A stretch of 64,000 nucleotides of DNA from Alphaproteobacteria bacterium (GTDB lineage Bacteria > Pseudomonadota > Alphaproteobacteria > Bin95): positions 1,696,001 through 1,760,000 of the forward strand of contig OZ219787.1 of assembly GCA_964291285.2 (NCBI GenBank), given 5' to 3'. The notes beneath the pieces are model-generated. The model was given only the letters and a program-made list of their open reading frames with translations, was not told the DNA's origin and did not search any database. The position numbers and the translations under genes are program-made. This document shows, piece after piece, positions 7,034-13,321 of this stretch (position 1 is the first letter of the stretch; the number at the start of each line of letters is the position of its first letter).

Positions 7034-7379
7034 TCGGGCCGCAGAATCAGGTGATGGACCGGCGCCCGGGCCGGGTCAAGGGAGATATAAGCGCCGTCCC
7101 GCCAGAGTTCCACAAGATCGTCGTAATGCGGTGAGAACGGGTTGCCCGACTGGCCGACGGCCTGCATGAACCGGGACCTGTCAGGGTCTTCCAGGTCGTA
7201 TATGGCCCGGTAGCCTGCGCCGTGAGCATGGCGGAACGGGTCGCGTTCATCGCGGAAGCGCGAGCCGCCCCGGTTCACCGTCGTCGGCCCCCCGCTGGTC
7301 GCGATCTCGCGGTTCAGGAGGCCGCCCAACAGCGGAATACGCCCTGCGACCGGGTGCAAGAAGCGGGCGCGGTGCGCCT
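7030..7379 (-). pseudogene. penicillin acylase family gene, C-terminal fragment
   Basis: AHRARFLHP...GAGYRAIYDLEDPDRSRFMQAVGQSGNPFSPHYDDL; joins the 12048-13321 fragment in frame once the IS110 is removed (TGG GGA GAG GCG CAC = WGEAH). Confidence 0.9.
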
Positions 7380-7389
7380 TGTATCTCTC

Positions 7390-7454
7390 CGGATCGTTGT
7401 TGCAGCTATAGTCGCAACAGCGGGAGCGGACGGGAGACCGCTAGCACCCAGGTT
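7390..7454 (+). ncRNA. putative IS110 bridge RNA, 5' part (5' stem-loop and left half of target-binding loop)
   Basis: Hairpin cgttgttgc/gcaacagcg, then stem arm agcggacgggagacc complementary to ggttccccgtccgct at about 11022-11036. Confidence 0.75.
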
Positions 7455-7608
7455 CAGACTTCCTGACCTCGTGACGATGTTTGTTGCGGGCGGCGTTCTG
7501 GGAACTTTTTGAGTTCGGTTCATTTTTCGTCTGTTTCGGCTGATTTTCGCTGGCTGCCGTGTCCAGGTTCGGGTATTTTAATTTGACACTGGATACGAGA
7601 TTTCAACC

Positions 7609-11000: not shown

Positions 11001-11099
11001 ATGAAGACCGCGGGAGAGCATGGTTCCCCGTCCGCTGTTCCTTTGAACCCGAACAGTCGCTTGGTCCGCAGTGTGAGACCGCATTTGCAAGGACGGGAC
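11001..11099 (+). ncRNA. putative IS110 bridge RNA, 3' part (right target guide and donor-binding loop)
   Basis: ACAGTCGCTT (11053-11062) equals the circle-junction donor sequence; GGGAGAG (11012-11018) is the reverse complement of the target CTCTCCC. Confidence 0.8.
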
Positions 11100-12032
11100 A
11101 TGGAACGGATATTCGTTGGCATCGACGTGGCGAAGGATCGTCTGGACGTGCATCTGCGCCCGTCCGGGGAGGCCTTTGCCGTCGCGCGCGACGGCAAAGG
11201 CCTGGAAGAGTTGTCGGCGCGCCTGGGCGGGCTGGAGGTTGCCCTCGTGGTGCTGGAGGCGACGGGCGGCTTCGAGGTCACGGTCGCGGCGGCGCTCTGC
11301 GCGGCGGGCCTGCCATTGGCGGTGGTCAACCCGCGCCAGATCCGGGACTTCGCCCGCGCCACCGGCCGGCTCGCCAAGACCGACGCCCTCGATGCGGCGG
11401 CGATCGCACAGTTCGCCGAGGCGGTCCATCCCGAGCCCCGTCCGGTGCCTGACGAGCAGGCCCGCGCGCTCGCCGAGCTGGTCGCCCGGCGGCGCCAGAT
11501 CGTCGCGATGATGACCGCGGAGAGAAACCGCAGGAGGCGCCTCACAAGCCGTCGCACGATCCGCAGCGTCGACCGCGTGCTCGCCACCCTGCAACGCGAA
11601 CTCTCCGACCTCGAAACCGAGCTCGGCGATGCGATCCGCAAATCCCCCGCATGGCGCCAGGCCGAGGACCTCCTCAAAAGCGTTCCCGGGGTCGGTGACG
11701 CCACCGCACGAACCCTGATCGCCGATCTCCCCGAACTCGGAACCCTCAGCCGAAGGCGCATCGCCGCGCTCGTCGGCGTCGCGCCCTTCAACCGCGACAG
11801 CGGAACCATGCGCGGAAAGAGAACCATATGGGGAGGACGCGCCAACGTCCGCGCAACCCTCTACATGGCTGCCCTCACCGCCTCCAGGCATAACCCAACC
11901 CTCAAACGCTTCTATCGCCACCTGATCGCGGAGGGAAAAACCAAAAAGGCTGCCCTCACCGCCGTCACACGAAAGCTCCTCACAATCCTCAACGCTATCC
12001 TCAGAGACCGAACCCCGTGGAAAACAGCTTGA
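11100..12032 (+). CDS. IS110-family DEDD recombinase/transposase
   Basis: [42 protein letters not shown]. Confidence 0.95.
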
Positions 12033-12047
12033 CCGACAACACAGTCG

Positions 12048-13321
12048 CTCTCCCCAAGGCGGGGTCTCGCTGCCGTAGCGGTTCTGGAGGAACGCAACGG
12101 CGCGGCGGTGCGCCAGCGCGAGCCGATCACGGCAGGTTTCCTTCGGTTTGGTGCGGACATCGTCGCACCAGGCGGGCCGGTCGAGCAGCGTTTGGCGGAG
12201 CACCAGCGGTCGGTACGCCCACCAGTCCTGGAACAGCGGCCCCAGCTCGTCTGCGAATACGGCGCGCATCGCCTCGCGCATCCAGGCCATGTAGATCAGC
12301 GGCTCCGGCCGGTGCCGGTCCATGTCGCCGTCCCAGGCCCGCAGGCGCATATCGGGAACCGCAGCCAGCAGGTGAGGCAGCAATTCGCGCGCCGACAGCG
12401 ACACCGTGTCGTTCTGTATCGCCGCATGGCCCGCTTGCGCATTGAGCAGTTCGTGAATCCTGATCGCGCGGTAGGGCGCATTCCATTCGCGGCCGAGATA
12501 GTAGGGATAGGTCTCGTCCACGAGGCGGTTATTGGCGTTGACGATGCGCCCGGAGCGGGGATCGGTCCGCCGCGGCAGCCGGTCGAAGGGGATGAGACGG
12601 GACCATGTCGTCTCCCCGGATACTTCGAAGCCGCCGCGCCGGTCCGGAACCCGCCCCGGCGTGACGATTCCGATGCGGCCGGTCCTGTCCGCATAGACGA
12701 TGTTCTGCTGCGGGGAGTGGAAATTGCGAAGGGCGGCAAGGAACCCCGGCCAGTCGCGCGCCCGGTTCAATCGGCCGAGAGCCTCGGCGGTCCGGTCGTC
12801 GTCGCGGAAAGCCGGGCTCTCGACCGCCCAGCCTTCGGGCAGCGCATCGGTGAAATCGGAGACGACCGCGCCCTTCCGGGTGCGGCGCAGTTCAAGTTCG
12901 ACGCTTTCGCCCCAGCGCACCGCCACCTCCTCGCGGCGGATCACGACCACCTCCGGTTGCGTGACGACATCCGCAGTGTCGGTGTAGGGCGTGGTCAGGC
13001 CCCAGGCGATGCTGCCATTGTGGCCGAGCACCATGAAGGGGACGCCCGGCGCCGTAGCGCCCGCCAGCACGCCTTCCGGCGTCTCGATACGCGCCAGATA
13101 CCAGGTGTTCGGGATCGTCAGGCCGAGATGCGGATCGTTGGCAAGCGCCGCCGGGTCGCCTACGGCCCAGACATTCGAGGCGCCGCTGCTGCCGAGGCCC
13201 GGCAGGGTCACGGGATCGTCCACCGAGGTGGGCGGCCACAGGTCTTTTATCTGCTCCGGCGTCAGCCGCTCCGCCATTTGCGCGCGCAGCGCCTCGGCCC
13301 GCCAATTGCCGATCAGCCTGA
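12048..13321 (-). pseudogene. penicillin acylase family gene, middle fragment
   Basis: GASNVWAV (Ntn Ser), ANDPHLGL, GHNGSIAWGLT, PQQNIVYADRTG, IVNANN. Confidence 0.92.

Follow-up and report, generated by a model that had tools for sequence, protein, structure and literature searches.

In the 64,000-nucleotide (nt) stretch of DNA analysed here as a whole and referred to as the window (Alphaproteobacteria bacterium, Bin95; assembly GCA_964291285.2, contig OZ219787.1, positions 1,696,001-1,760,000 of the forward strand), positions 7378-12049 are one copy of a 1,124-bp insertion sequence (IS) of the IS110 group. We propose, at a probability of roughly 0.92, that it is a bridge-RNA element of the IS621 type, which selects its insertion sites by RNA guides and inserts at [G/A]CAC-CT-CTCC[C/T]. 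The sequence-level defining features of an IS110-group bridge-RNA system are present in it, with a junction promoter that is plausible; by analogy with IS621, we infer its transcription, the binding of the RNA by the protein and the recombination itself. The coordinates of its parts are collected in Table 1.

The element is made up of a single CT core, a left end of 174 nt, a gene for a recombinase of 310 amino acids (aa) and a 17-nt right end that includes the core; in the window it spans 4,670 bp, as against 1,124 bp without the 3.5-kb nest of two other ISs that it carries. At the left junction the sequence is GGTGCGC-CT-TGTATCTC, its CT being 7378-7379, such that the element begins CT-TGTATC; at the right junction it is ACAGTCG-CT-CTCCCC, its CT being 12048-12049. 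When the genome to which the window belongs (6.1 Mb, 5 contigs) was searched, 13 copies with 100% identical right parts were recovered, every one of them with the CT core at both junctions; no other duplication accompanies the element. Uninterrupted copies, which an earlier note on this DNA had proposed to look for, number nine of these 13; over the split point of the window copy (7454/7455) they read ...GCTAGCACCCAGGTT|ATGAAGACC..., and they agree letter for letter with the left end that the note had pieced together from 7390-7454 and 11001-11099. Further, contigs of four public runs were placed on positions 6900-12600 of the window. In the contigs of two of these, which come from the same study (X1 and X2), a joint 7377->12048 skips 4670 letters, with 2 ambiguous letters and at the depth of the unique flanks; the empty site read across this joint, GGTGCGC-CT-CTCCCC, is exactly the target that had been predicted to be restored on excision. 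Two additional joints in the X1/X2 contigs correspond respectively to an intact left end (7449->10996, 5 ambiguous letters) and to a state without the inner part of the nest (9931->10967, 8 ambiguous letters). Runs X4 and X5 contributed nothing beyond diverged relatives of portions of this stretch. No circle junction and no read starts were seen in the contigs, which are unable to reveal either, so this negative has no bearing on activity. Since the site is occupied in the assembly and empty in X1 and X2, the insertion is recent or polymorphic, and the element would have been active recently; the contigs cannot tell whether occupied and empty forms coexist within one sample.

The recombinase matches the Pfam domains DEDD_Tnp_IS110 (PF01548, E = 3.4e-24) and Transposase_20 (PF02371, E = 4.2e-20), and scores 222.9 bits against the NCBIfam model NF033542, 'IS110 family RNA-guided transposase' (cut-off 140). 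Its closest solved relatives are IS621 (PDB 8wt6; phmmer E = 1.5e-38 over 304 residues) and ISCro4 (PDB 9t56; E = 2e-38). Likewise, its residues D9, E53, D95, D98 and S234-G235 align with the catalytic D11, E60, D102, D105 and S241-G242 of IS621 (the PDB chain being offset by 2). By these matches, the protein is an IS110-family DEDD/Tnp recombinase; it is the sole member of its 90% protein cluster, which carries no name.

In an intact copy, the left end folds at -73 kcal/mol (z = -2.77, with 1 of 200 shuffles as stable) into a 5' hairpin followed by two domains, a target-binding and a donor-binding loop. For a comparative view, reference genomes were scanned with the recombinase as query, and we took the best 80 of 381 tblastn-confirmed related loci (60-93% identity, mostly Alphaproteobacteria); locating the left-end start by motif then gave an alignment of 61 distinct left ends, the window's own included. 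RNAalifold gives these a consensus of 25 pairs; compensatory changes occur at 13, mostly in the outer stem of the target-binding loop (e.g., columns 57/114: AU 30, GC 13, UA 8, GU 7, CG 2); the inner stem of the donor-binding loop contributes one covarying pair (GC 43, UA 17, AU 1). A rough test, asking for 8 or more pairs and an energy lower than that of shuffles by more than 3 kcal/mol, detects a 5' hairpin in 44/61 left ends, its sequence differing among them. The 5' hairpin and two internal-loop domains that the earlier note had drawn are recovered in the single-copy fold. The opposite strand of the bridge RNA gives a sub-threshold match to the Rfam family sX15, a Xanthomonas small RNA (L002:1458-1572, minus strand; 28.1 bits against a gathering score of 55, E = 0.076), which is probably the mirror image of the long stem; a mir-598 match in the same scan of the intact copy lies outside the element.

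The predicted loops hold four putative guides, the coordinates of which, when checked on the sequence, are those that had been assigned to them beforehand. On the donor side, ACAGTCGCT(T) at 11053-11062 repeats the end of the element: the window has two matches to ACAGTCGCT, of which the second is the right end (12041-12049), as against 0.30 expected in the window and two or more matches in 2/100 shuffles. The right donor guide, UGCAAG, pairs with CTTGTA, using one G-T pair. Among the related elements, the left donor guide agrees with the element's own end at 9/9 positions in 18 of 27 distinct combinations, at 8/9 in 8 and at 7/9 in 1, and there are three left-donor types, each matched by its own guide.

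On the target side, the guide blocks were taken from columns of the alignment and set against the flanks of the element in question, giving 50 guide groups with 81 distinct sites in all. Left out beforehand were rows whose left-end start was not located by the motif (L039, L076, L090, L095) or that had no left end (L074), and the right flank was present for 70 of the 81 sites, the others having run off the contig or misfitted the end motif. The right target guide predicts 4.76 of the 5 right-flank positions, against 2.41 in shuffled pairings, with 0/2000 shuffles as high; the match is 5/5 in 54 of the 70 sites, 4/5 in 15 and 3 or fewer in 1. Thus, the complementarity of GGGAGAG to CTCTCCC, previously noticed in the window alone, covaries with the right flank across the orthologues. 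The left target guide, taken as 7 nt plus core, predicts 4.00 of 7 left-flank positions, against 2.64 when shuffled, again with 0/2000 shuffles as high. Position by position, the observed values at each of -1 to -4 and +1 to +5 were reached by 0/1000 shuffles and that at -5 by 29/1000; per-position shuffles gave no guide signal at -6 and -7. Hence, the 11 bp recognised in this clade appear to be split about 4+2+5. A longer right target guide reaching +6 was considered and rejected, as this position does not covary (0.18 observed, 0.18 shuffled); the G found at +6 in 10/13 of the element's own sites (hand tally) probably reflects the repeat family described below. The candidate handshake bases that follow the right-hand guides are likewise conserved in their pairing: in 72/72 cases donor G7 stands opposite the C that comes after the right target guide, and in 75/81 sites the target -1 C is faced by the G after the right donor guide, with one A:T exchange. 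The second handshake position is unpaired in this element.

One could instead regard the structured left end as a cis-acting leader only, controlling translation or serving as a protein-binding end, and the flank matches as incidental. The 3' end of the donor-binding loop does abut the start codon, so the fold could affect translation. Yet, flank DNA lying outside the element covaries with the loops over 50 guide groups, to an extent reached by none of 2000 shuffles, and a leader or protein-binding site does not predict such covariation; we therefore consider this explanation highly improbable.

Several observations nevertheless weigh against the bridge-RNA interpretation or lessen the force of its support. 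First, the three distal bases of the left target guide hardly fit the element's own sites (-5 in 0/12, -6 in 0/12 and -7 in 1/12), and its second core-facing base is C, not U, mismatching the T of the core. Second, while 32/47 guide groups fit best with 7 nt plus core, the best register differs in the other 15 (by one in 14, by two in 1), L030/L031 included. Third, the orthologues are related, so the shuffle tests overstate their independence; a purely phylogenetic explanation of the match between guides and flanks is unlikely, because there are many distinct guides (25 right, 47 left). Fourth, the right donor TGTATC is near-invariant, such that the right donor guide is backed mainly by complementarity, and the stems of the donor-binding loop are near-invariant too (the outer one invariant), such that covariation there speaks neither for nor against them. 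Fifth, no Rfam family scored above threshold on the left end of the intact copy (scan with E up to 1). Finally, the -10-like TATCTC, discussed below, fits TATAAT at 3/6 places only and overlaps the right donor. As regards the register, in the closest relative (L030/L031, 93% protein identity), the left guide block is AACCGGCCC and the two flanks fit best one base off (10 vs 5 matches); seven further guide groups fit best one base in the opposite direction. The register of the left target guide seems to be flexible in this clade.

The insertion sites of the 13 copies in the genome itself resemble the guides. The right flank is CTCC[C/T] in 13/13 copies, and the last four letters of the left flank, known for 12 of them, are GCAC in 6, ACAC in 3, and GAAC, CCAC and GCGC in 1 each, the last being the window copy; with [G/A]CAC in 9/12 left flanks, the consensus is [G/A]CAC-CT-CTCC[C/T]. 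A hand tally over the same 12 sites gives matches to the left target guide of 12 at -1, 11 at -2, 11 at -3 and 8 at -4. The target predicted earlier, near AGCACC[C/T]CTCCC, comes close to this consensus, except that its A at -5 occurs in 0/12 sites. Likewise, the suggestion of a mismatch-tolerant insertion is borne out by the GCGC of the window copy in place of GCAC, though in a mild form, with 1 mismatch in the four positions read. The motif [AG]CACCTCTCC[CT] is occupied 9 times (hand tally) and has only 8 empty instances in the 6.1 Mb, where base composition leads one to expect about 19.

By eye, a family of palindromic repeats harbours at least 5 of the 12 sites for which the left flank is known, and three of these fit its strict pattern, which has 82 matches genome-wide, some 80 of which belong to the family. 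The family comprises about 80 copies of about 110 bp, of the form GGCGCCGGCGCGGTTCGCGCGCCTGATTGCGCGCGCGAG ... GCAC[G/C/T]TCTCCCGTC ... TTTT ... CGCGCCGGCGCC (e.g., G000:C3:68617 and C1:102972), and its variable centre is an IS110 target in a minority of the copies. Most members read GCAC-GT-CTCCC or have another right flank, and these are unoccupied; the occupied members carry the CT core and the CTCC flank. The guides would thus explain which members of the family get hit. This concentration in one palindromic family could also be taken to mean that the target is set mainly by a recombinase sensing the shape of the palindrome, with RNA pairing in a secondary role, and a 'sequence-structure dual-match' is reported for ISPpu10 in a 2026 preprint (10.64898/2026.03.19.712850). 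However, the remaining sites lie in unrelated contexts, the amidase gene interrupted in the window included, and share only the 11-bp motif; the majority repeat variants, which lack the CT core or a right flank fitting the guide, are unoccupied; and the occupied repeat members have just the CT core and CTCC flank that the guides demand. Hence, we hold shape-led targeting to be improbable and retain RNA-guided choice of the target.

As for expression, in the element's circular form the hexamer TTGACC would come to lie 17 nt upstream of TATCTC, and TTGAC[N] is found at the same place in 47/49 distinct combinations of right and left ends. TTGACC-17 nt-TATCTC is therefore a plausible junction promoter. 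Briefly, we advance the following mechanism. By analogy with IS621, the element would leave its site as a circle, in which the joined right and left ends form a promoter of the sigma-70 type (TTGACC, 17 nt, TATCTC). Transcription of the left end from this promoter would yield a bridge RNA some 160-175 nt long, and the same promoter would drive the recombinase as well. In the target-binding loop, CUAGCAC-CC would read the left target on the bottom strand, effectively through GCAC and the core C only, and GGGAGAG would pair with CT-CTCCC on the top strand; in the donor-binding loop, ACAGUCG-CU and UGCAAG would read the element's own joined ends. The handshake base after each right-hand guide (C and G, respectively) could pair with the exchanged strand, upon which the recombinase would insert the circle at [G/A]CAC-CT-CTCC[C/T]. 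The window copy entered a slightly off-consensus site (GCGC, not GCAC) in a gene of the penicillin-amidase family.

Table 1. Parts of the IS110-group element and of its putative bridge RNA, with positions in the window
Feature	Position	Strand	Basis or remark
Left target flank GGTGCGC	7371-7377	+	inside the interrupted amidase gene; empty-site contig joint
Core CT, left copy	7378-7379	+	same in all copies; 2-letter ambiguity at the joint
Left non-coding end, first 75 nt	7380-7454	+	identical in 9 intact copies
Right donor TGTAT...	left-end start, within 7380-7454	+	
-10-like TATCTC	7382-7387	+	
5' hairpin (predicted)	7394-7423	+	
Target-binding loop, outer stem, 5' strand (predicted)	7425-7440	+	
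Left target guide CTAGCAC+CC, CTAGCACCC (putative)	7441-7449	+	last two letters face the CT core
Target-binding loop, inner hairpin, first strand (predicted)	7451-7454	+	
Nested insertion splitting the bridge-RNA gene	7455-10995	.	IS with an IS1595-family element inside
Second copy of the AGGTT target-site duplication	10996-11000	+	first copy 7450-7454; 5-letter ambiguity at the joint
Left non-coding end, last 99 nt	11001-11099	+	rest of target-binding loop, linker hairpin, donor-binding loop
Right target guide GGGAGAG (putative)	11012-11018	+	complement of CT+CTCCC; handshake C 11019, A 11020
Linker hairpin (predicted)	11037-11048	+	
Donor-binding loop (predicted)	11048-11097	+	
Left donor guide ACAGTCG+CT (putative)	11053-11061	+	equals the element's last 9 nt
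Right donor guide TTTGCAAG (putative)	11084-11091	+	TGCAAG 11086-11091; handshake G 11092, A 11093
IS110-family recombinase gene, 310 aa + stop	11100-12032	+	Pfam, NCBIfam, IS621 alignment
-35-like hexamer TTGACC, over the stop codon	12029-12034	+	
Right end, 17 nt, closing with left donor ACAGTCG + core CT (12048-12049)	12033-12049	+	
Right target flank CTCCC	12050-12054	+	CTCC[C/T] in 13/13 copies

The nest aboard the window copy is itself composite. The outer IS has perfect 16-bp inverted repeats CAGACTTCCTGACCTC, a 5-bp duplication AGGTT and a transposase open reading frame (ORF) of 788 aa (7609-9975, plus strand), with Pfam Transposase_29 (PF21804) and helix-turn-helix domains; no NCBIfam IS family matched it above cut-off. 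Its natural ORF is of 777 aa, the insertion of the inner element having taken its stop codon and extended it to 788 aa. This inner element (9940-10966) belongs to the IS1595 family, with a 313-aa ORF on the minus strand (9958-10899; PF12762 and PF12760, NF033547) and an 8-bp duplication AACAAAAT, and sits near the right end of the outer IS. The genome has about 11 copies of the outer IS and about 18 of the IS1595-family element, and the same composite, with the latter at the same place, stands free at C3:472624-476164. The nest breaks the bridge-RNA gene within the target-binding loop, where the 5' strand of the inner hairpin gives way to that hairpin's loop. As the nest sits in that hairpin, the window copy, judging by its layout, is unable to make a complete bridge RNA of its own. 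Its recombinase gene and both of its ends are intact and, by analogy, the most it could do is move with the help of RNA made by the 9 intact copies.

The history of this arrangement allows for two accounts. The 4.67-kb composite, i.e., the IS110 element with the nest already aboard, may have entered the amidase gene as one 'expanded' unit: the amidase site is empty in X1 and X2, hence all 4.67 kb arrived recently; neither the recombinase gene nor either end is damaged; and cargo-carrying expanded IS110 elements are described in the accessible part of 10.64898/2026.08.14.744561. On the other hand, the genome has no second IS110 copy bearing the nest, and the nest, standing free elsewhere, is able to transpose alone, so two successive insertions are enough. 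While entry as one unit is thus conceivable, we find it doubtful and favour two successive events, with the IS110 element first and the nest later, because the nest exists alone and no other IS110 copy carries it.

The window copy is not the only interrupted one. All four interruptions among the 13 copies fall within 31 bp (left-end positions 45-75, or 7425-7454 in the window), and none of the 13 is interrupted elsewhere in its 1,124 bp; the other three are at G000:C2:1145193-1147420, C2 ~1295800 and C3 ~1142076-1143610 (loci L110, L112 and L111, respectively). The intruders are of three kinds: (i) an IS256-type element in the outer stem, with a 9-bp duplication GAGCGGACG; (ii) in two copies, a DDE_Tnp_1 element that sits at the CTAG of the left target guide, one of these copies lacking its left part; (iii) the PF21804-type element, which is the nest of the window copy. 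By a post-hoc estimate, 3 x (31/1124)^2, the chance of three independent random hits in some 31-bp span is about 0.002. It is tempting to regard the 5' half of the target-binding loop as a preferred landing place for unrelated ISs, beyond chance, though we deem this quite unlikely. Were it true, competing mobile elements, or host selection, could disarm targeting in this way, leaving the donor-binding loop and the recombinase intact and transcribed from the intruder, such that excision, though not insertion, would be promoted by the copy. Donor-only 'half-match' recognition is said, in a 2026 preprint, to be enough for excision.

The type of system was recognised as a known one from the outset. 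The bridge RNA of IS621 from Escherichia coli was described, along with its mechanism, in 2024 (PMC11208160, PMC11208158), and the following comparison draws on the accessible parts of these papers. The element shares with IS621: (i) the DEDD RuvC-like and Tnp domains, with the five catalytic residues aligned, and the CT core; (ii) a guide RNA encoded in a left end of roughly 175 nt and comprising a 5' stem-loop as well as target- and donor-binding loops; (iii) left guides that correspond to the top strand and right guides that correspond to its complement; (iv) a handshake base after each right-hand guide (Hiraizumi et al., PMC11208158); (v) repeated palindromic elements as preferred targets; (vi) the loop layout of the IS621 oligonucleotides, in which the left guide (9 nt) is followed by 1 nt, then by an inner hairpin and by a 7-nt window with the right guide. 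It differs in that the protein match is a distant one (phmmer E = 1.5e-38 over 304 residues), the length is 1,124 bp as against 1,277 bp in IS621 and the recognised 11 bp are apparently split 4+2+5 as against 7+2+2 (both PMC11208160); a 7-nt right guide is itself a known option in IS621, as per the same paper. Further, the left target guide has C rather than U as its second core-facing base, the left half of the donor is ACAGTCG, and the target is [G/A]CAC-CT-CTCC[C/T] as against ATCAGGCCTAC in IS621. The earlier note had likened the donor junction to a presumed IS621 donor, ACAGTAT-CT-TGTAT; this string occurs 0 times in the main text of PMC11208160. ISCro4/IS622 (PDB 9t56; 10.1101/2025.05.14.653916, in its accessible part), the second-best solved relative, is of the same family and follows the same two-component logic, the comparison here being by protein.

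The nearest systems are the alphaproteobacterial orthologues (L030-L109; e.g., L030 and L031 at 93%), which have the same scaffold and donor ends and, in many cases, the same length of 1,124 bp, while their target guides differ and their flanks differ correspondingly. Farther afield, in the IS1111 group, which belongs to the same recombinase superfamily, RNA-guided target choice by a seekRNA or right-end bridge RNA was reportedly described by Siddiquee and colleagues in 2024. There, the guide lies downstream of the recombinase, in contrast to the upstream guide and 17-nt right end seen here. Membership in that group, with its seekRNA in a long right end, was considered for the element and ruled out on account of the right end being only 17 nt.

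As to novelty, the mechanism is already known and the NCBI model NF033542 already names the protein an RNA-guided transposase. A 22-nt string of the left end occurs 0 times in the searched parts of the PMC11208160 supplements, which does not prove its absence from them. The donor motif ACAGTCGCT is found at least 313 times in each of two of these supplement files and at least 6 times in a third, from which we take it that the clade was included in the covariation analysis published there. What the element offers is a clean natural case, in which four guides, handshake bases, a plausible junction promoter, an empty site and 12 further sites are readable from sequence. Its relatives add a reference set of about 50 related guide variants, and the 4+2+5 geometry may interest those seeking compact bridge recombinases whose guides are laid out differently.

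Finally, for the annotation of the genome, the element accounts for a split gene and a three-level IS nest. The interrupted host gene, on the minus strand, is of the penicillin-amidase family (PF01804): profile positions 153-575 match on 12051-13277 and positions 578-667 on 7033-7377, and this continuity of the profile over the element indicates that a single amidase gene was split by the IS110 insertion. As the PF01804 match starts at profile position 153, the N-terminal part of the amidase is either beyond 13277 or missing.

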